Assembly: GCA_041288095.1 (NCBI GenBank)
Contig: JBGGMJ010000005.1
Location: forward strand, 1 to 39,659
Direction of reading: 5' to 3'
DNA: 39,659 nt
Source of the DNA: Myxococcota bacterium
GTDB lineage: Bacteria > Myxococcota > XYA12-FULL-58-9 > JALHOP01
A program made the position numbers and the translations under genes. Each line of letters opens with the position of its first letter. Within the stretch, counting starts at the first letter, position 1. This document shows, one piece after another, positions 29,329 through 39,659 of the stretch. Below the pieces are notes generated by a model. It saw only the letters and a program-made list of their open reading frames with translations, had not been told where the DNA came from and ran no database searches.

Positions 29329-30573
29329 GTGATAGCGGCATCATGGCTGGCGTTGGTGGGTGTGACGCTCTGCGCCTGCGGCAACGAGGTGTCGATGCCG
29401 AGCGTCGAGGGTGCGGGCGGGGAAGAAAGCGATCCGCCCGTCGGTGACGTCGACACCACGGCGCCGGGTGACGACGACGGGCCAGGTCCCGCGGGCGGCG
29501 ACGTCGCGCAAGGCGACGATGACCCACCAGGAGACGCCGATCTTCCACCGGCCAAGGTGCCGGTATTCATCGCGCAGGGACACGCGGGGCGGCTTCTCAT
29601 GTCGTGCGACGATGGCCGCTCGTGGCGCTTCGACGTGAGCGACGACGACGCGATTGTCTGCTTCAATCCCACCGACTGCGATCACAGCGCCATGTCCGCG
29701 GCTGGGCTCACCTATGCGAACGGGCACTTCTTCGCGAGCTTCGGCCACGGCTCGTCCGCCGGAACGTTACGGCATTCCGTCGACGGCAAGACCTGGACGC
29801 CCCTGCAGACCGGCAGCTCGCAGGGAGGCGTGTACTTCAACGGCGAGCTCCTGCTGTGGATGGAAGGGCACTTTGGCCTCTCGAACGATCTCGGCGTAAC
29901 CGTCGACTCGAACCTCGAGAATGTTCCTGGTCACTTCTATCAGTCGCGCACCATCGCGGCGCAGGGCGACGTCATCATCGTTTCGGGCGACGGCGTGGGG
30001 GGCCTCGTGAGTCGCGATGCGGGACGGACGTGGCAGGCCGCGACGCTCGTGGATGTGCGCTGGGGACGTAACGTCTTCATGCAGACGGCGCCAGACGGCA
30101 GTCTGGTGACGCTGAGCGCCGTGCACGACGTCCAGATCGGAGAGCAGACCTACAAGACGCTGGCGTTCGCCGCGCGCTCGACCGATGGCGGGCTCACCTG
30201 GGTGGGCTCGCAACGCTTGGACTACGTCACGGCCTACGTCGAATGGGCAGGCATGTTCAGCGACGGTGGCCTGCTCTTCGCCTTTTTCGACAACGCCATG
30301 TGGACGAGCGAAGACGGCATTACGTGGGGCGGGGTGACGGTGCAGACGTCGCTGCCGGCGGGGCGCATCACCGATGGCGCCATCGCACGTGGGCCGAGCG
30401 GCACCTACGTCACCGTCACCGACGTATGGAACAACTACTACGACAAGCAGCGCGCCTATCGCAGCGACGACGGCCTTCACTGGACGCAGCTCGACGCGGA
30501 GAGCTTCACCGGCGGACACCCGGTGCGTCACATGACCACCGGGTGGGTCGACGCCGCGGCCTGCGCCGAGTAG
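29329..30573 (+). CDS. BNR/Asp-box (sialidase-like beta-propeller) lipoprotein
   Basis: Lipobox LCAC, acidic Pro linker, Asp-boxes SCDDGRSW, SVDGKTW, SRDAGRTW, STDGGLTW, SEDGITW, SDDGLHW. Start chosen at GTG 29329 (ORF track gives 29314). Confidence 0.85.
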   Translation: MIAASWLALVGVTLCACGNEVSMPSVEGAGGEESDPPVGDVDTTAPGDDDGPGPAGGDVAQGDDDPPGDADLPPAKVPVFIAQGHAGRLLMSCDDGRSWRFDVSDDDAIVCFNPTDCDHSAMSAAGLTYANGHFFASFGHGSSAGTLRHSVDGKTWTPLQTGSSQGGVYFNGELLLWMEGHFGLSNDLGVTVDSNLENVPGHFYQSRTIAAQGDVIIVSGDGVGGLVSRDAGRTWQAATLVDVRWGRNVFMQTAPDGSLVTLSAVHDVQIGEQTYKTLAFAARSTDGGLTWVGSQRLDYVTAYVEWAGMFSDGGLLFAFFDNAMWTSEDGITWGGVTVQTSLPAGRITDGAIARGPSGTYVTVTDVWNNYYDKQRAYRSDDGLHWTQLDAESFTGGHPVRHMTTGWVDAAACAE

Positions 30574-30595
30574 CGGCTGGCGGGCACCGATGGGC

Positions 30596-30639
30596 GCGGT
30601 GCGACGAGCTGCACACTGTGGTGTAGCTCGCCGCACCGC
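30596..30639. repeat. 18-bp imperfect inverted repeat downstream of the propeller gene
   Basis: GCGGTGCG-A-CGAGCTGCAC / GTGTAGCTCG-C-CGCACCGC. No U-tract. Confidence 0.6.
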
Positions 30640-30892
30640 TCGGAGGACCGCGGCGCGTGTGCCCCAACGCGCCAGCGGGCGAAGTTCGCGCGCCGCATCC
30701 ACGAACGGCGCAATCTTCGCTGCGACTGGTTAGATCAAGATCTGGTGAAAACAGCTCCCCGCTCGGCTCATTCGTTGTGGTGATATCGGCCGATCGCGGC
30801 TGGGGTTGCCCCCTCATGTGCGACTTTTTGGCACCTGGGATCGTCTGAGACCCGATAAGGAAAGATGCCCTCGATTCAGGGCGGAGTGCGTC

Positions 30893-31333
30893 ATGTTGCT
30901 CGCAAACCTCGTCTTGACCATGGCGTTGGCGGCCGACGAGAGCTCGCGTTTTCACCTGCTGGAAAGCCAGCTTACGGTGGCGACTCAGGTTGGGACGGAG
31001 CCTGCGAGCAAGAAGTGTCCGAGCCTCTATCCCAAGGTGGCGCCCCAGCCTCCCGAACCGCTGTCGACGCCACTCCCCGACGCGGCGCTAAAAAAATCGC
31101 TGGCTGAAGCTTTCGGCGGACGCACGCGCGCCTCGGCCTGCGTCTACGGCGTTCAGGGCGTTCGCCGCCAAGACCCACGCTACGGCATGCGCCAGCTCAC
31201 GCTCGAGGTCGCGCCGCCGCTGGCTCCGCAAGGGCGCCTGCGCCTGCTGCTGCGGACGGTCGTTAGTCGCTTCGAAACCATGCACGACGTTGGCCACAAC
31301 AACGCCGAGGTCTACGCCGGCGTCAGCTACTGA
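30893..31333 (+). CDS. Small exported hypothetical protein
   Basis: ATG at 30893 with a GGAG SD, signal-like MLLANLVLTMALAA, CCCGATAA box at 30851-30858. Confidence 0.5.
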   Translation: MLLANLVLTMALAADESSRFHLLESQLTVATQVGTEPASKKCPSLYPKVAPQPPEPLSTPLPDAALKKSLAEAFGGRTRASACVYGVQGVRRQDPRYGMRQLTLEVAPPLAPQGRLRLLLRTVVSRFETMHDVGHNNAEVYAGVSY

Positions 31334-31384
31334 CCTCCGATCTCGACGCCTGCGAAAAATCGACATGTTGCCGTGAAAAAGTGC

Positions 31385-31413
31385 TCGACGGGGTCACGTG
31401 CTTTTGCTAGAAG
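31385..31413 (+). promoter_or_regulatory. sigma70-type promoter of the S10 operon
   Basis: TCGACG-N17-TAGAAG with an extended-10 TG and discriminator CCGCGCCC. Same -10 as the rpsL promoter. Confidence 0.55.
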
Positions 31414-31547
31414 CCGCGCCCCTGAGTTCAAAAGGCACCCGTCCTCGTGGCGGTGATGCGGTTTGACAACGCGGAAAGCGCCGTCCGGGCGCGTGATCGA
31501 GGCTCATTACGGCTTCGAGAGCGCACCCGATGCAAACGAGAGTTGAG

Positions 31548-31880
<333 letters not shown>

Positions 31881-31894
31881 GGCGGAGCACGTCA

Positions 31895-32527
31895 ATGAAA
31901 GTCGATGTCTTCAACGTAGAGAACAGCAAAGTCGGCAGCGTCGATCTGCCCGATGACGTGTTCGGCGCCGAGGTCAACGAGACCCTCCTCTGGGAGATGG
32001 TCAAGGCCCAGCGCGCTTCGCGTCGCCGTGGCACGGCCAAGACCAAGCGTCGTGGCGAAGTCAGTGGCGGCGGCATCAAGCCCTTCAAGCAGAAGGGCAC
32101 CGGCCGCGCTCGTCAAGGCTCGAGCCGCGCTCCGAACCACGTCGGTGGTGGCTCGGTGTTCGGTCCCGTTCCGCGCGACCACAGCTACCGCCTCCCGCGC
32201 TCGGCCCGTAAGGTCGCGCTCGCCAGCGCTCTGTCGCTGCGCGCCAAGGGCGGGCTGATGATCGTCGACAAGATGGAGCTCAAAGCTCCGAAGACCCAGA
32301 GCGTCGTCGAGTTCATGGGCAAGGTCGGCACGACCAGCGCTCTGATCATCGACATCGAGAACGACAATCTCAAGCTGTCGACGCGTAACCTGAAGAAGGC
32401 GAAGTACCTGTTCGCTTCAGCGGTCAACGTCTACGACATTTTGGACCACGACAAGCTGGTCATCACCAAGGGCGCTCTCGAGCACGTCATCGCTCGCGCC
32501 AAGAGTGAAGAAGCGAAGGCGGCCTAA
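31895..32527 (+). CDS. rplD: 50S ribosomal protein L4
   Basis: [23 protein letters not shown]. Confidence 0.99.
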
Positions 32528-32528
32528 G

Positions 32529-32816
32529 ATGCAGACTCAAGAAATTCTCGTCCGTCCGATCATCACCGAGCGCGCGACCACCGCGCAGGAGCGTCTTGGT
32601 CAGGTCACGTTCGAGGTCAAGAAGGCCGCGAACAAGAATCAGATCAAGAGCGCCGTCGAGACCATCTACGGCGTAACCGTTTCCGCGGTGCGCACGATGA
32701 CCATGCCCGGCAAGCTGAAGCGCCGCGGTCAGAGCATCGGCAAGCGTCCTAACTGGAAGAAAGCCATCGTTCAGCTCAAAGAAGGCGACAAGATCGACTT
32801 CTTTGCGGCGGAGTAA
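32529..32816 (+). CDS. rplW: 50S ribosomal protein L23
   Basis: RPIITE, ANKNQIKSAVE, WKKAIVQL. Confidence 0.98.
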   Translation: MQTQEILVRPIITERATTAQERLGQVTFEVKKAANKNQIKSAVETIYGVTVSAVRTMTMPGKLKRRGQSIGKRPNWKKAIVQLKEGDKIDFFAAE

Positions 32817-32819
32817 GCC

Positions 32820-33671
32820 ATGGGCGTAAAGAGTTTTAGACCGACGACGCCGACCAAGCGTCATCAGACCCGCGCCGATTTCGCGGAGCTCACGACCAAG
32901 GGTCGCGCGCGTCCCGAGAAGTCGCTCACCGCGCCTCTCAAAGAGAAGGCCGGCCGCAGCAACCAGGGCCGTATCTCCGTTCGCTTCAAGGGCGGCGGTC
33001 ACAAGCGCAAGTACCGCATCATCGACTTCCGTCGTAGCAAGGTCGACGTCGTCGCCAAGGTCGTTCGCATCGAATACGATCCGAACCGCTCGGCACGCAT
33101 CGCGCTGTTGCACTACAAGGATGGCGAGAAGGCGTACATCATCGCGCCCGTAGGCCTCGCCGCCGGCGACACGGTGGTCAGCTCGTCGACGGCGGACATC
33201 AAGCCCGGCAACTCATTGCCGCTCGTGAACATCCCCTTCGGCACCACGGTGCACGCCATCGAGATGAAGCCCGGCAAGGGCGCTCAGCTCGCGCGTAGCG
33301 CCGGCGTCTCGGCGACCTTGATGGCCCGTGACGGCGGTTACTGCCTCTTGCGCTTGCCCTCGGGCGAGATTCGTCAGGTGCCGGAAACCTGCCGCGCCAC
33401 CATCGGTCAGGTCGGCAACACCGACCACGAGAACGTCGTTCTCGGCAAAGCCGGTAAGTCACGCTGGCTCGGTCGCATGCCGCACAACCGCGGCGTCACC
33501 ATGAACCCCGTCGACCATCCGTTGGGCGGCGGCGAAGGCAAGAGCTCCGGCGGCCGTCACCCGGTCACGCCGTGGGGTAAGCCGACGCGTGGTTACAAGA
33601 CCCGCAAGAACAAGTCGACGAACCGCTTCATCGTTCAGCGTCGTCCGCCTAGCAACATGAGCAAGGGATAA
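32820..33671 (+). CDS. rplB: 50S ribosomal protein L2
   Basis: [28 protein letters not shown]. Confidence 0.99.
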
Positions 33672-33677
33672 GCCACC

Positions 33678-33959
33678 ATGCCACGTTCACTGAAAAAAGG
33701 TCCCTTCGTGGACAAGCACCTCGTCAAAAAAGTCGAGGAGCTCAACAAGAGCGGCGCCAAGCGTGCCATCAAGACCTGGTCGCGTCGCTCGACCATCTTG
33801 CCGGACATGATCGGCCACACGTTCGCGGTCCACAACGGCCGCAAGCACATCCCTGTGTTCGTCACTGAGAACATGGTCGACCACAAGCTCGGTGAGTTTG
33901 CCCCGACCCGCACCTTCAATGCTCACCCGGGCATCAAGAAGAAGGAAGTAGCGCGCTAA
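33678..33959 (+). CDS. rpsS: 30S ribosomal protein S19
   Basis: [26 protein letters not shown]. Confidence 0.99.
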
Positions 33960-34348
33960 TGGCTACCAGAGAAAAACAAAAGGCCGTCAAGCGGGCCGAA
34001 GCGCGCAAGGCTCTCGGGCCCGTCGCGTCGCTCAACTATCTGCGCATGTCGCCGCAGAAGGTTCGCCTCGTTGTCGACCTCATCCGCGGCCGCGCCGTGG
34101 AAGAGGCGCTCAACATCCTGACGTTCAGCCCGAAGGCGGCTGCCGGTCCGCTCGGCAAGCTCCTGAAGAGCGCTGTCGCCAACGCCGACCAGAAGGGTGG
34201 CTTCGACCTCGACAAGCTGGTCGTCAAGACCGCGACCGTCGACGAGGGTCCGACCTGGCGACGGTGGCTGCCGCGCGCTCAAGGCCGCGCCACCCGCATC
34301 CGCAAGCGTACGTCGCACGTCACCATCGTTCTGGGCGAGAGGGCTTAA
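33959..34348 (+). CDS. rplV: 50S ribosomal protein L22
   Basis: [28 protein letters not shown]. Confidence 0.99.
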
Positions 34349-34352
34349 TCAC

Positions 34353-35042
34353 ATGGGTCAGAAGACACATCCAGTAGGCTTCCGCCTCGGCGTCATTCGT
34401 ACCTGGGACTCCAAGTGGTACGAGGACAAGAACTACGCAGCGTGGCTGCACGAAGACATCAAGCTCCGCGACTTCGTGAAGAAGAAGCTGAACAGCGCTG
34501 GTGTCTCCAAGGTCGAGATCGAGCGCGCCGCCGCCAAGGTGAAGATCAGCATCTACACCCCGCGTCCCGGTATCGTCATCGGTAAGAAGGGCGTCGGCAT
34601 CGAGCAGCTCAAGAAGGAGCTGCAGGTTCTGTCGAAGTCCGAAGTCTTCGTGAACATCCACGAAGTCCGCAAGGCCGAGATCGACGCGCAGCTCGTCGCC
34701 GAGAATGTCTGCGTTCAGCTCGAGCGCCGCGTTGCCTTCCGTCGCGCCATGAAGAAGGCGGTCCAGACCGCTCTCAAGTTCGGCGCCAAGGGCATTCGCA
34801 TCGCCGCCGCCGGCCGCTTGGGCGGTGGTGAAATGGCCCGTCACGAGCAGTACCGCGAAGGCCGCGTGCCGTTGCACACGCTGCGCGCCGACATCGACTT
34901 CGGCTTCGCCGAGGCGAAGACCACGTACGGCAAGATCGGCGTCAAGGTGTGGATCTTCCGCGGAGAGATTCTCCCGGATTCGGGTCCGTTGCCTCCGCGC
35001 GAGAAAGCCCCAGAACAGCCCCGGGAGCGCTTCGACTCCTAA
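34353..35042 (+). CDS. rpsC: 30S ribosomal protein S3
   Basis: [26 protein letters not shown]. Confidence 0.99.
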
Positions 35043-35074
35043 CGGGAGTTGTACGCTAAAGAGGACTAACGATC

Positions 35075-35494
35075 ATGTCTCAGCTATCGCCAGCGAAAGT
35101 CAAATATCGCAAGCAGTTCAAGGGCAACCTCAAGGGCAAGGCCCTCCGTGGTGGCACGCTCGCCTTCGGCGATGTCGGCCTCCAGGCCACCGAGCCCGGC
35201 TGGATCACCCAGCGTCAGCTCGAGGCTGCTCGTATCGCGATGACCCGCCACATCAAGCGTGGCGGTCGCATCTGGATCCGCGTCTTCCCGGACAAGCCGA
35301 TCACCAAGAAGCCCGCCGAAACCCGCATGGGTCACGGTAAGGGCGGTGTCGAGCACTGGGTTTGCGTCGTGACCCCGGGTCGCGTGCTCTACGAAATGCA
35401 GGGCGTGAGCGACGAGATCGCCAAGGAAGCCTTCCGCCTTGCCATGCACAAGCTGCCCCTCGCGACGCGCATGGTGCGCCGCTCGGACATGTAG
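35075..35494 (+). CDS. rplP: 50S ribosomal protein L16
   Basis: [23 protein letters not shown]. Confidence 0.99.
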
Positions 35495-35505
35495 GACCAA
35501 GACCA

Positions 35506-35892
35506 ATGGCACAGAACGCTGAAAAAGTCGTAGCTTCGAACATCCGCGACCGTAACCCGGCAGAGCTCATTTCGCTCCGCTCGGCCAAAGTAGAGGAGCT
35601 CCGCAAGCTCCGCTTCAAGAAAGCCTTAGAGGGCTCGCAAGCCGTCACCATCAAGTCGCACGAGTTCCAAGCTCTGCGTCGTGACATCGCCGTCTTGAAC
35701 ACCGTCCTCGGTGAAAAAGACCGCGGCGTGACCGTCGAGGCCAAGGCCCCGAAGGCAGCCAAGCCCAAGGCCGAGAAGAAGGCTGACGCGCCCAAGGCCG
35801 AGAAGAAAGCCGCCGCCCCTAAGAAGGCGAAGGCCGAGAAGACCGAGAAGGCTCCCGCCAAGAAGGCGAAGGCCAAGAAGGGCGAGGAATAA
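35506..35892 (+). CDS. rpmC: 50S ribosomal protein L29 with Lys/Ala-rich C-terminal extension
   Basis: Located between rplP and rpsQ. EELRKLRF..., [13 protein letters not shown]. Confidence 0.92.
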
Positions 35893-35894
35893 TC

Positions 35895-36287
35895 ATGGCT
35901 GAGAAGACTGCAAAGCCGAAGGCCGAAAAGGCCGAGAAGGCTCCCAAGGCCGAGAAGGCCGTCAAGGCTCCGAAGGCCGCCCCGGCCGCGATGACCGCGC
36001 AAGCGGACGCGCCCAAGGTGGGCGAGGAGCGCCAGAAGTCGATCAAGACCCGCCGCGGCGTCGTCTTGAGCAACAAGATGGACAAGACGGTGGTCGTCGA
36101 GATCAGCCGTCGTTACCAGCACCCGAAGTACGGCAAGTTCTTGAAGCAGCGCATCCGCCACAAGGCGCACGACGCTGACAACAAGTGCAACATCGGGGAC
36201 ATCGTGGTCATCGAAGAGACCCGTCCGCTGTCGAAGGACAAGCGTTGGCGCGTCATCGAGATCGCGGTCGCGGCGTCGGCCGTCTAA
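35895..36287 (+). CDS. rpsQ: 30S ribosomal protein S17 with Lys/Ala-rich N-terminal extension
   Basis: [31 protein letters not shown]. Confidence 0.98.
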
Positions 36288-36329
36288 TTCGATAAGGACG
36301 TCCGCTTTGGCGGATGCTGAGGTTTAGTC

Positions 36330-36698
36330 ATGATTCAGATGCAAACCGTGCTCGACGTCGCTGATAACTCCGGCGCGAAGCGCGTCATGTGCGTCAAGGT
36401 TCTCGGCGGCTCGCGTCGTCGCTACGCCACCATCGGTGACGTGGTGATCGTGGCAATCCGCGAGGCCCTGCCGAACGCCAAAGTGAAGAAGGGCGATGTC
36501 GCCCGCGCCGTCGTGGTGCGCACCTCGAAAGAGATCATGCGCGCGGACGGCAGCTACATCCGCTTCGACACGAATTCAGCGGTTCTGATCAGCGCGCAAG
36601 GCGAGCCGATCGGCACCCGTATCTTCGGGCCGGTGGCACGCGAGCTCCGCAGCAAGAAGTTCATGAAGATCATTTCGCTCGCTCCCGAGGTGCTCTAA
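36330..36698 (+). CDS. rplN: 50S ribosomal protein L14
   Basis: [35 protein letters not shown]. Confidence 0.99.
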
Positions 36699-37033
36699 TG
36701 GCTCGCCGTCTACGCAAAGGTGACGAAGTCGCCGTCATCGCTGGTGCCCACAAGGGCAAGACCGGCCGCATCGTCGAGGTCATGAACGACTCGAACCGCG
36801 TGCGTATCGAAGGCGTCGCCACCGCGCAGCGCCACGTGAAGCCCGGCCGTGACCCGAAGATGCCCAATGGCGGCATCATCGAGAAGCTCGGCTCGATTCA
36901 CGCTTCGAACGTGATGCCGGTTGACCCGAGCACCAAGAAGCCGACCCGCGTGGGCTCCAAGACCCTCGAGGACGGGACCCGCGTTCGTATCGCTAAGAAG
37001 TCAGGTGACATGTTGCAGGACGCTGGCGTATAA
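36698..37033 (+). CDS. rplX: 50S ribosomal protein L24
   Basis: KGDEVAVIAG..KGKTG, IHASNV. Confidence 0.98.
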   Translation: MARRLRKGDEVAVIAGAHKGKTGRIVEVMNDSNRVRIEGVATAQRHVKPGRDPKMPNGGIIEKLGSIHASNVMPVDPSTKKPTRVGSKTLEDGTRVRIAKKSGDMLQDAGV

Positions 37034-37095
37034 GGCGCCTCCGTTTTTGGAAATCAGCCGGTTTGATTGCGTGACCGGCTGTAACGAGGAAAGTC

Positions 37096-37773
37096 ATGGC
37101 AGAAGAGAACGACGATAAGGCCGCAGCGGCTGCCGCGAAAGCGGAGCGTGCCGAGAAGGCCAGGGCCAAGGCGGCCAAGGGCAAAGAGAAGAAGCGCGAC
37201 GCCATCAAGGTCGAGCCGCTTCCCGAGGGCTACGTCCCGCGCCTGCTCAGCCGCTACAACAAAGAGATCATCCCGGCTCTGATGAAAGAGTTTGGATACA
37301 AGAACGCGATGGAAGTTCCGAAGATCACCAAGATCGTCGTGAACGCCGGTATCGGTGAAGCCACCGCCAATCCGAACCTCGTGAAGACCGCCGCCGACCA
37401 ACTCTCGGACATCACCGGCCAGCACGCGGTCATCACCAAGTCGAAGAAGGCCATCGCGAACTTCAAGCTCCGCGAAGGCCAGGCCATCGGCGCCACGGTA
37501 ACGCTGCGTCGCATGGCGATGTGGGAGTTCCTCGACCGTCTCGTCTCGGTTGCTCTGCCGCGTACGCGCGACTTCAAGGGCATCAACGGCAAGGCGTTCG
37601 ACGGCCGCGGCAATTACACGCTGGGGCTGAAAGAGCAGATCATCTTCCCCGAGCTCTCGTATGAGGACGTCGAGAAGGTGTTTGGCATGAACATCTCGAT
37701 CATCACCACGGCGAAAGACGACGTGCAGGGGAAAGCGCTACTGCGCCACCTCGGCATGCCCTTCAGGAACTAA
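37096..37773 (+). CDS. rplE: 50S ribosomal protein L5 with N-terminal extension
   Basis: [38 protein letters not shown]. Confidence 0.99.
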
Positions 37774-37779
37774 TAGACC

Positions 37780-37965
37780 ATGGCTAAGACTTCGAAGCGC
37801 GTCCAAGCGACCCGCAAGCCGAAATTCAAGGTTCGCGCTTATAACCGTTGCCCGATCTGCGGCCGGTCGCGAGCGTTCCTCCGTAAGTTCCAGATGTGCC
37901 GCTTGTGCTTCCGCAAGCGCGCTCTGAACGCGGAGATTCCAGGTGTCATCAAGGCGAGCTGGTAA
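37780..37965 (+). CDS. rpsN: 30S ribosomal protein S14, Zn-binding (type Z)
   Basis: 61 aa, RCPICGR...CRLCFR, ends KASW. Confidence 0.98.
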
Positions 37966-37980
37966 CAGCTAGCCCTTTCA

Positions 37981-38013
37981 GCCTGTAAGTTCGCGATAGC
38001 GAATACTGCAGGC
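37981..38013 (+). promoter_or_regulatory. Putative S8-binding mRNA operator (16S rRNA helix-21 mimic)
   Basis: GCCUGU-AAGU-UCGC-gaua-GCGA-AUACU-GCAGGC hairpin, ending immediately before the rpsH SD (GAGG). Confidence 0.65.
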
Positions 38014-38023
38014 GAGGTAGTTC

Positions 38024-38422
38024 ATGCATACAGATCCAGTTGCCGACCTGTTGACCCGCATCCGCAATGGCGCCCGCGCGCGTCTTTCGACGGTCAGCTG
38101 CCCCCAGTCCAAGCTCAAGCTCGAGATCTGCCGCGTGCTCAAGGAAGAGGGCTACATCGCCGACTTCCAGAGCGTGCCGGATCAGAAGAAGCAGGGCCAG
38201 ATCGACATCACGCTCCGTTATAACGAGCGCCGTCAGCCGGTCATCAATAGCATCCGCCGCGTCTCGAAGCCCGGCCTGCGCAAGTACCTGCGCTCGACCG
38301 AAATCCCGCGCATCCGCACGGGGCTCGGCATCATGATCCTCACCACCTCGCGTGGCGTTCTCACCGACCGCGCCTGCCGTGAGCAGGGCGTTGGCGGCGA
38401 AGCGCTCTGCGCCGTCTACTAA
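38024..38422 (+). CDS. rpsH: 30S ribosomal protein S8
   Basis: DPVADLLTRIRN, RVSKPGLRKY, TSRGVLTD. Confidence 0.99.
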   Translation: MHTDPVADLLTRIRNGARARLSTVSCPQSKLKLEICRVLKEEGYIADFQSVPDQKKQGQIDITLRYNERRQPVINSIRRVSKPGLRKYLRSTEIPRIRTGLGIMILTTSRGVLTDRACREQGVGGEALCAVY

Positions 38423-38449
38423 ACGACACCACGAAACGAGGAACGAACA

Positions 38450-38992
38450 ATGTCACGCATTGGTAAAAAGCCGATTCCGATTCCCGACAAGGTGAAGGTC
38501 GACATCTCCCCGCGCTCTGTGAAGGTCACAGGGCCCTTGGGTGTACTCGACGCGGTGATCCCTGTCGGCGTCACCATCAAGATCGAGAACAACGTCCTTC
38601 ACGTCGTTGCTCCCGCTGCCTTCGACCGCCACAACAAGGGCTTCCAGGGCCTGATGCGCGCCGTCCTCGCCAACATGGTGAACGGCGTCGTCAAAGGCTT
38701 CGAGCGCACCATCGAAATCACCGGTGTTGGTTACAAGGCCGAGCAGAAGGGCGACAAGCTGGTTCTCCAGCTCGGTTACACGCACCCCTGCGAAGTCGTG
38801 TTGCCGAAGTCGGTGAAGGCGAAGATCGACAAGGGCACCGTCGTGACCCTGACCGGTCCGGACAAGCAGGTGGTCAATCAGATCGCCGCGACCCTTAGAG
38901 CCTTCAAGAAGCCCGAGCCGTACAAGGGCAAGGGCGTCAAGTACTCGAACGAGACCATCATCCGCAAAGTCGGTAAGACGGGAGCCAAGTAG
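38450..38992 (+). CDS. rplF: 50S ribosomal protein L6
   Basis: [20 protein letters not shown]. Confidence 0.99.
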
Positions 38993-38994
38993 CC

Positions 38995-39351
38995 ATGGGC
39001 ACCAAGGGTTTGACTGGCCGCCAGCGCCGCAAGCTGCGCGTCCGCAAGAAGGTCTTCGGTACCGCCGAGCGTCCGCGCTTGAACGTGTTCCGCAGCGCCA
39101 AGCACATCTACGCGCAAGTGATCGACGACGACAAAGGCATGACCTTGGCCGCCGCTTCGAGCCTCGCGGAGACCGTGAAGAAGATGGACGGCAAGAAGTC
39201 GGACATCGCGAAAGCGGTGGGCTCGGCTGTCGCCCAGGCTTGCAAGGCCGCGAACATTACCGCGGTGGTTTTCGATCGCAATGGTTACCGCTATCACGGA
39301 CGCATCAAGGCAGTTGCCGACGGTGCCCGCGAAGGCGGATTGCAGTTCTAA
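38995..39351 (+). CDS. rplR: 50S ribosomal protein L18
   Basis: [27 protein letters not shown]. Confidence 0.99.
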
Positions 39352-39413
39352 CGTCCGTGCCCGGACCGGTGTGCCGGGCTTGGCTGTCCGCTTAAAAGGA
39401 CAAGAGGTTTCTC

Positions 39414-39659
39414 ATGGCTCATCACGGTATGGAACAACAAGACGGCGAAGTCGTCGACAAGCTCGTCGACCTGAACCGCACGGCGAAGGTCGTCAAAGGT
39501 GGCCGTCGCTTCTCGTTCAGCGCGCTCGTCGTTGCCGGTGACGGCAATGGTCGCGTTGGTGCGGGTCTCGGTAAGGCCAACGAAGTTCCCGAGGCGATTC
39601 GCAAGGGTTTCGACCAAGCCAAGAAGAACCTCTTCTCGGTCCCGGTCACCAACGGCACG
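39414..39659 (+). CDS. rpsE: 30S ribosomal protein S5, 3'-partial
   Basis: Translated by hand (absent from the ORF track): [64 protein letters not shown]. Runs off the window. Confidence 0.97.

Follow-up and report, generated by a model that had tools for sequence, protein, structure and literature searches.

A conserved, rRNA-like hairpin abutting the Shine-Dalgarno sequence of rpsH in a Myxococcota bacterium is a probable operator for ribosomal protein S8

Feedback control of the spc operon by ribosomal protein S8 is a textbook example, and such control has so far been described only in E. coli-like bacteria, at a gene other than rpsH. The locus described here raises the question whether S8 may act directly at its own gene, since an earlier note had read a hairpin between rpsN and rpsH of a Myxococcota bacterium as a mimic of helix 21 of 16S rRNA and thereby provided a candidate at rpsH. 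The window, i.e., the whole stretch of 39,659 nucleotides that was analysed, ends in an S10-spc ribosomal protein cluster that occupies its final 6 kb, where Pfam confirms L5 (37096-37773), S14 (37780-37965), S8 (38024-38422), and L6 (38450-38992); the gap between rpsH and rplF is 27 nt and that between rplF and rplR is 2 nt. Lys/Ala/Glu-rich low-complexity extensions are found on three ribosomal proteins (window 35362-37773): L29 has one as its C-terminal tail, and S17 (35895-36287) and L5 (37096-37773, 225 aa) each have one at the N-terminus. Excerpts of a 2024 review describe the regulation of the spc operon outside E. coli-like bacteria as unknown, and phylogenetic studies of it as not advanced (PMC10931766).

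The stop codon of rpsN (37963-37965) and the ATG of rpsH, which starts at 38024, are separated by a spacer of 58 nt (37966-38023). The features of the locus are as follows.

37780..37965, plus strand: rpsN, an ORF upstream of the spacer that encodes the 61-aa zinc-ribbon type of S14 (Pfam Ribosomal_S14, E 1.1e-22)
37966..37980, plus strand: variable 5' part of the spacer, of which CCUU and AGCUA pair with the Shine-Dalgarno sequence and bases beyond it in the minimum free energy (MFE) fold
37981..37986, plus strand: 5' arm of the lower stem, GCCUGU, counterpart of 16S rRNA 589-594, seen in covariation
37987..37990, plus strand: 5' strand of the core, AAGU, equal to A595, A596, G597, and U598, with the G invariant in 10/10 aligned hairpins
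37991..38002, plus strand: upper stem UCGC/GCGA with loop GAUA (UCGC 37991-37994, GAUA 37995-37998, GCGA 37999-38002)
38003..38007, plus strand: 3' strand of the core, AUACU, equal to A640, U641, A642, C643, and U644, with A642 and C643 invariant in 10/10
38008..38013, plus strand: 3' arm of the lower stem, GCAGGC, seen in the sequence, the MFE fold, covariation, and contigs of relatives
38014..38017, plus strand: Shine-Dalgarno sequence GAGG of rpsH, which starts right after the last stem pair and lies six bases before the ATG
38024..38422, plus strand: rpsH, an ORF that encodes S8 (132 aa; Pfam Ribosomal_S8, E 1.6e-46), the presumed ligand and regulated gene

The hairpin (37981-38013) thus comprises 33 nt, with a lower stem of 6 bp, AAGU opposite AUACU, an upper stem of 4 bp, and a GAUA loop. 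All of these elements are present where the earlier note had placed them, and its claim that the hairpin stops at the base before the Shine-Dalgarno sequence is borne out by a last paired base at 38013 followed by GAGG at 38014-38017. The hairpin is part of the MFE fold of 37966-38040, which reaches -24.2 kcal/mol as compared to -16.3 +/- 2.7 for shuffled sequences (z -2.9; 1 of 200 shuffles equally good). The pairing that RNAfold predicts within the internal loop is slightly shifted, as it joins A37987 to U38007 and G37989 to U38004; these pairs differ from those of the S8 site because RNAfold cannot model the base triples that occur there.

The core of the hairpin was compared with the S8 site of 16S rRNA. 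In rrsH of E. coli (NC_000913) positions 595-598 read AAGU and positions 640-644 read AUACU, so that the numbering given in the earlier note is correct, and the hairpin core is identical to these nine bases at 9/9 positions in the same strand order. The 16S rRNA gene of the host genome itself (contig C138) reads AAGU/AAACU and is matched at 8/9 positions, the sole difference being position 641, which is U in the leader and A in the 16S rRNA. The earlier description of the hairpin as a more literal mimic of rRNA therefore holds for its rRNA topology and for its full agreement with the E. coli core, and fails with respect to position 641 of the organism's own 16S rRNA. Of the genomes considered, 16S rRNA was recovered only in that of the window, G001, and G210, and reads AAGU/AAACU in all three, so the sequence of a leader does not follow that of the 16S rRNA in its own genome.

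The likeness to helix 21 (E. coli nt 588-651) extends beyond the core. In both, the 5' strand carries AAGU and the 3' strand AUACU, the loop of the hairpin lies toward the 599-639 side, and a U-G wobble in the hairpin corresponds to U594-G645 in 16S rRNA. In contrast to helix 21, the hairpin is situated in an mRNA spacer and its upper helix is shortened to 4 bp plus a U-A pair and capped by a tetraloop, besides the U at 641. Its regular helices on either side of the core, a lower stem of 6 bp and an upper stem of 4 bp, both covary, and these stem lengths reportedly equal those of the minimal S8-binding fragment described by Wu et al. in 1994. At the level of individual bases, the Watson-Crick pair G597-C643 has its counterpart in G37989 and C38006 and is GC in 10/10 aligned hairpins. 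The 3' strand has one extra nucleotide at 641 (U38004) and an unpaired A642 (A38005); across the alignment, A642 is invariant (10/10) and position 641 is U or A. The pair 598-640, which closes the upper helix, is U37990-A38003, and the bases of the 595-(596-644) triple are A37987, A37988, and U38007, as in E. coli, so that A37987-(A37988-U38007) would form a triple as in 16S rRNA. According to excerpts of PMC4176348, the hallmarks of the S8 site are an A642 that does not vary and two triples, (G597-C643)-U641 and A595-(A596-U644), the latter being G595-(C596-G644) in Thermus.

The hairpin is a rare object in its genome. When both strands of the 5,854,225-base genome were scanned, a strict descriptor found 2 sites, i.e., helix 21 of the 16S rRNA and the rpsH hairpin; it demanded AAGU between a lower stem (>=5 bp) and an upper stem (>=3 bp), with A[U/A]ACU on the opposite strand ahead of the second arm of the lower stem. 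Relaxation of the core to NNGU/ANACN raised the number of matches to 224, which identifies the exact core as the rare part. Likewise, a covariance model built from the hairpins (R1) scored the rpsH hairpin at 44.8 bits, as compared to 14.3 bits for the next match in the genome. The comparison with known r-leaders that the earlier note had proposed revealed no known family for the hairpin: a scan of window 30000-39659 against Rfam 15 gave no match at E <= 10, and a scan of 20 related loci gave only an irrelevant b55 match (E 4.9).

The upstream regions of rpsH in related bacteria were collected by S8 searches, which located the gene in 37/41 relatives, 18/22 genomes of the order, and 297/301 genomes of a phylum sample. 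The resulting upstream set consisted of 130 rpsH regions, assembled from sets of 30, 13 (one G002 duplicate dropped), 29, and 59/60 loci (one not orientable), and some duplicates from the same genome remain in it. Within the genus, the hairpin is present in 3/3 genomes with an rpsH locus, with identical core and upper stem and with three different lower stems (GCCUGU/GCAGGC, GCCGGG/UCCGGC, and GUCAGC/GCUGAC). In one of these genomes (G001) the spacer measures 130 nt as compared to 58 nt in the genome of the window, and the hairpin still abuts the Shine-Dalgarno sequence, indicating that the element goes with the start of rpsH and not with the end of rpsN. This longer spacer (L004:1371-1500) has some 75 extra nt with short, tcggtag-like direct repeats 5' of the hairpin.

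Scans of genome and metagenome collections with S8 yielded few close relatives, the best being a metagenome contig (L045) whose leader has an AAUA loop and an A-G opposition beside the core. This contig (L045:1-1825) is near-identical to the window from rplE through rpsN and the leader up to about residue 43 of S8, and its relationship to the window's proteins is only distant in the remainder of S8 and in L6. It may be a chimeric assembly or have arisen by recombination, and it was therefore used only as a genus-level variant of the leader. Genus-level variation in the loop (GAUA, AAUA, AAC, and 37995 G>T) leaves the upper stem constant.

The spacer is also covered by contigs of relatives from three public runs, which include a metatranscriptome library. 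These contigs contain a compensatory change in the lower stem (37984 T>G with 38010 A>C), which converts a U-A pair to G-C, and one of them additionally differs on both sides of the wobble pair beside the core (37986 T>A and 38008 G>C). The 5' part of the spacer is not conserved, with changes at 37971, 37975, 37976, 37978, and 37980 as well as indels, and one further change was seen at 38019. In the contigs of these three runs no change was found in 37987-37990, 37991-37994, 37999-38002, or 38003-38007. Conservation of AAGU/AUACU in relatives, on which the earlier note had staked its proposal, is thus found at the genus level, both in the 3/3 genomes and in the contigs. The metatranscriptome contig spans rplE, rpsN, the spacer, and rpsH in one piece, which is compatible with co-transcription and no proof of it; a scan of 36900-38500 for sigma-70 promoters found none. 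In a contig of a relative from run X5, the end of rpsN is joined to rpsH by 35 other letters that replace 80 skipped ones (37964-38045), which indicates a short spacer lacking the hairpin in that relative.

Hairpins of the same design precede rpsH in four further families. Their cores read AGGU/AAACC in f3, GCGU/AUACG and AGGU/AAACG in f4, ACGU/AUACG in f36, and ACGC/GUACG and GCGC/GUACG in f30. Together with the genus-level set of four, the six hairpins from outside the genus form an alignment (A3) of ten hairpins from 5 families, in 8/10 of which (4/5 families) the Shine-Dalgarno sequence follows the last pair of the lower stem within at most 2 nt; f4 is the exception, with 10-12 nt in between. 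The element was not found in 12/18 genomes of the order that have an rpsH locus (families f2, f6, f7, f8, and f9), most of which have no spacer or an unrelated one, suggesting that it is dispensable or has been replaced there.

The earlier note had asked for covariation among these spacers, and both stems do covary in A3, with 11/13 pairs varying on both sides and G597-C643 and A642 present throughout. The members from outside the genus were selected by a descriptor that demanded both stems as well as G, A, and C in the core, and the pairing statistics of A3, where 95.4% of the cells are standard pairs as compared to 70.1% in shuffles and at most 43% in controls with slid partners, are therefore partly circular. 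The host genome, G001, G002, L045, and the contigs from the runs of relatives were selected by synteny only. Moreover, earlier and looser passes of the descriptor made no demand on the 596-644 pair, and the variants of this pair include the Thermus-type C-G. In A3 it is AU in 4, CG in 4, GC in 1, and other in 1 (G-G in one f4 member), and the 598-640 pair is UA in 8 and CG in 2; these varying states match known alternatives of the rRNA S8 site, such as the Thermus G595-(C596-G644).

Enrichment at rpsH was assessed with a position-limited descriptor, whose match had to end at most 30 nt from the end of the upstream region. This descriptor, which was defined after the data had been seen, matched 7/130 rpsH regions, as compared to a mean of 0.175 and a maximum of 3 in 200 dinucleotide shuffles. 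A relaxed descriptor without position limits was uninformative (16/131 loci versus 12.2 in shuffles). A scan of 151 phylum genomes with R1 returned scores of at least 30 bits only in the genome of the window, G002, and G005. Among 11 weaker matches at 20-27 bits, the 9 that were examined (loci L145-L153) have no S8 gene and look like false positives within genes. The same scan, run with strict filters, missed three of the model's own training members (G001, G006, and G012), so that its negatives are weak and do not amount to a census.

Taken together, these results identify the hairpin as a genuine RNA structure that is conserved and occurs once in the genome, and it probably serves as a translational operator for S8. 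The S8 encoded in the window is canonical, with 52% identity to that of E. coli, and its Tyr and T-T-S tripeptide align to the RNA-contact residues of the E. coli protein, the roles of which are described in excerpts of PMC4176348. Motif and geometry point to binding by S8, repression of rpsH, and steric occlusion as its mode. In the proposed mechanism, free S8 in excess over free 16S rRNA would bind the rpsH hairpin, the loop of which would adopt the S8-recognition fold, where U641 joins the G597-C643 pair, A642 is extruded, U598 pairs with A640, and A595 forms a triple with A596-U644. The flanking helices are roughly as long as those at the rRNA site. Bound S8 and the stabilised helix would then block access of the 30S subunit to the initiation site of rpsH, and translation of rpsH would drop. 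Occlusion of the 30S subunit is proposed because GAGG begins at the base next to the lower stem. The outer helix that sequesters the Shine-Dalgarno sequence in the MFE fold of the host is not conserved in relatives, and it was therefore left out of this mechanism.

Among the alternatives, the one that survives best is that this spacer hairpin serves some other purpose (e.g., stabilisation of the mRNA, RNase processing, or tuning of rpsH initiation by structure alone), and that its likeness to an S8 site is fortuitous. Stable hairpins are frequent in the spacers of ribosomal protein operons, the same spacer harbours unrelated hairpins in several relatives (e.g., L011/L013 and L026), and the motif is absent from most genomes of the order. 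A fortuitous likeness would nevertheless have to account for a full match of the core precisely before the S8 gene, with the S8 site of the rRNA as the sole other genomic site under the strict descriptor, for the invariance of the S8-critical bases over five families while the stems covary, and for natural variants that leave the core intact though ~15% of the spacer positions differ, and we consider it unlikely. Less likely still is that S8 does bind the hairpin with a different outcome, i.e., mRNA decay, control of downstream cistrons only, or co-translational capture of S8. Excerpts of PMC10931766 describe retroregulation via mRNA decay by E. coli S8 as well, and the distance of the f4 hairpin from its Shine-Dalgarno sequence would fit such an outcome, whereas in 4/5 families the hairpin ends 0-2 nt before this sequence, as would be expected if the initiation site is occluded.

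A role in terminating or attenuating transcription between the two genes, rpsN and rpsH, is highly improbable: although the hairpin is G+C-rich and lies within an operon, it is followed by GAGGUAGUUCAUG and not by a U-run, a terminator scan gave nothing at 37966-38023, and no conserved alternative antiterminator pairing was found. Identity as an intrinsic terminator, defined by a hairpin plus a U-run, was rejected. A copy of a dispersed repeat, or of a REP- or MITE-like mobile element, is hardly conceivable, since the exact matches of 13-17 nt that blastn-short finds for the upper stem-loop elsewhere in the genome share no common flanks, neither R1 nor blastn-short finds a second full copy, and the hairpin occupies the orthologous place in relatives; with several copies lacking, this identity was rejected as well. 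Those short matches are explained by generally common words, as CGCGATAGCG occurs 508 times in genome G000 and the 11-mer TCGCGATAGCG occurs 83 times, against 82.6 expected from a maximum-order Markov model and 4.2 from base composition. In G000, CGCGATAGCG and TCGCGATAGCG occur in unrelated contexts.

As a probable S8 operator, the hairpin has its closest functional counterpart in the E. coli spc operator, which overlaps the start of rplE according to excerpts of Fu et al. (2013, PMC3616713). Both are rRNA-mimic S8 sites within spc mRNA with the same core bases, and they presumably share the logic of autogenous translational repression. In E. coli (NC_000913) the 5' strand is A7, A8, A9, C10, and U11, opposite A80, A81, G82, and U83. 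This operator is flipped relative to the rRNA, with the 640-644 strand 5' and the open end on the side of the upper helix, spans ~90 nt with a long distal stem, covers the start codon and coding sequence of rplE, and controls rpsN and rpsH by coupling. In contrast, the window hairpin has rRNA orientation, measures 33 nt, and is wholly non-coding, between rpsN and rpsH at the Shine-Dalgarno sequence of rpsH itself. The rplX-rplE junction of the window (37033-37096) contains no S8-like site, in line with the earlier view that the element is differently placed, and the rpsN-rpsH spacer of E. coli (33 nt) contains no such motif. Since position and topology both differ, the hairpin is not a member of the E. 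coli-type spc operator family.

Other autoregulatory leaders offer more distant parallels. Excerpts of Eckert and Weinberg (2020, PMC7247131) describe L20, S15, S4, and eL15 leaders, which likewise have an rRNA-like structure upstream of a ribosomal protein gene, and 0/20 motifs in Table 1 of that work have S8 as ligand or rpsH as target. For yeast RPS22B, which encodes uS8, excerpts of PMC13232506 describe feedback of the protein on its own transcript via a conserved RNA structure; there, the structure is located in a eukaryotic intron and acts by inhibition of splicing. A full-text search of the literature, covering main texts, found no S8 leader at rpsH and none outside Gammaproteobacteria, and the hairpin as an S8 operator is most likely undescribed so far.

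A second motif, termed type-M, precedes rpsH in another family of the phylum, f17, whose genomes measure 2-13 Mb. It comprises 48 nt and lies 40-60 nt upstream of the start of rpsH, from which it is separated by a second hairpin. Enclosed by the two arms of an outer stem, it reads G-AA-CC, N, CCGGG-AUGGG-CCCGG, N, and A-GG-C. Examples are the following.

L081:164-211 and 24 further loci: the sequences of alignment A2
G029:C28:7414-7461: a copy 52 nt before rpsH

In the 25 sequences of A2, 13 columns are invariant, including the core, and 10/15 pairs vary on both sides. The corresponding model (R2) has one match per genome in 19/21 f17 genomes and none in 130 genomes of other families (0/130), and the coordinates of the match fall just upstream of rpsH at all seven places checked. 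Rfam gave no match for this motif. Like the window hairpin, it is a single-copy, covarying element upstream of rpsH, and its core G-AA-CC / A-GG-C fits the S8 consensus. Read in flipped orientation, with a G-C pair at 597-643, an AA bulge at 641-642, a G-C pair at 596-644, and A595, it could be an S8 site like that of the E. coli operator, to judge from its sequence. It differs from the window hairpin in this flipped topology, in its distance of 40-60 nt from the start, and in being confined to f17. In a member of f30 (G288, L093:168-207), a hairpin with the sequence CCCGGAUGGUCCUGG lies ~40 nt upstream of the rRNA-orientation hairpin and resembles the inner stem-loop of the f17 motif.

The hairpin described here is a candidate operator of compact size (33 nt) from an uncultured and distant lineage, and differs from the E. 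coli site in gene as well as topology. Natural variants already mark which of its bases matter, and as a near-perfect copy of the rRNA site it allows the question to be put whether affinity can rank below that of rRNA, as feedback control requires. Together with the f17 motif, it offers material on the frequency with which mimics of rRNA have evolved independently for a single protein. At least two unrelated S8-mimic architectures may precede rpsH in a single phylum, i.e., a hairpin of 33-50 nt in rRNA orientation that abuts the Shine-Dalgarno sequence (five families) and a flipped, single-copy element of 48 nt (f17, 19/21 genomes). These would be part of a broader and more tentative reading, for which the chances are somewhat less than even, that S8 autoregulation at the initiation site of its own gene is widespread and has been repeatedly invented. 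If this were true, the textbook arrangement of E. coli, in which an operator at rplE acts by way of translational coupling, would represent a special case rather than the rule.
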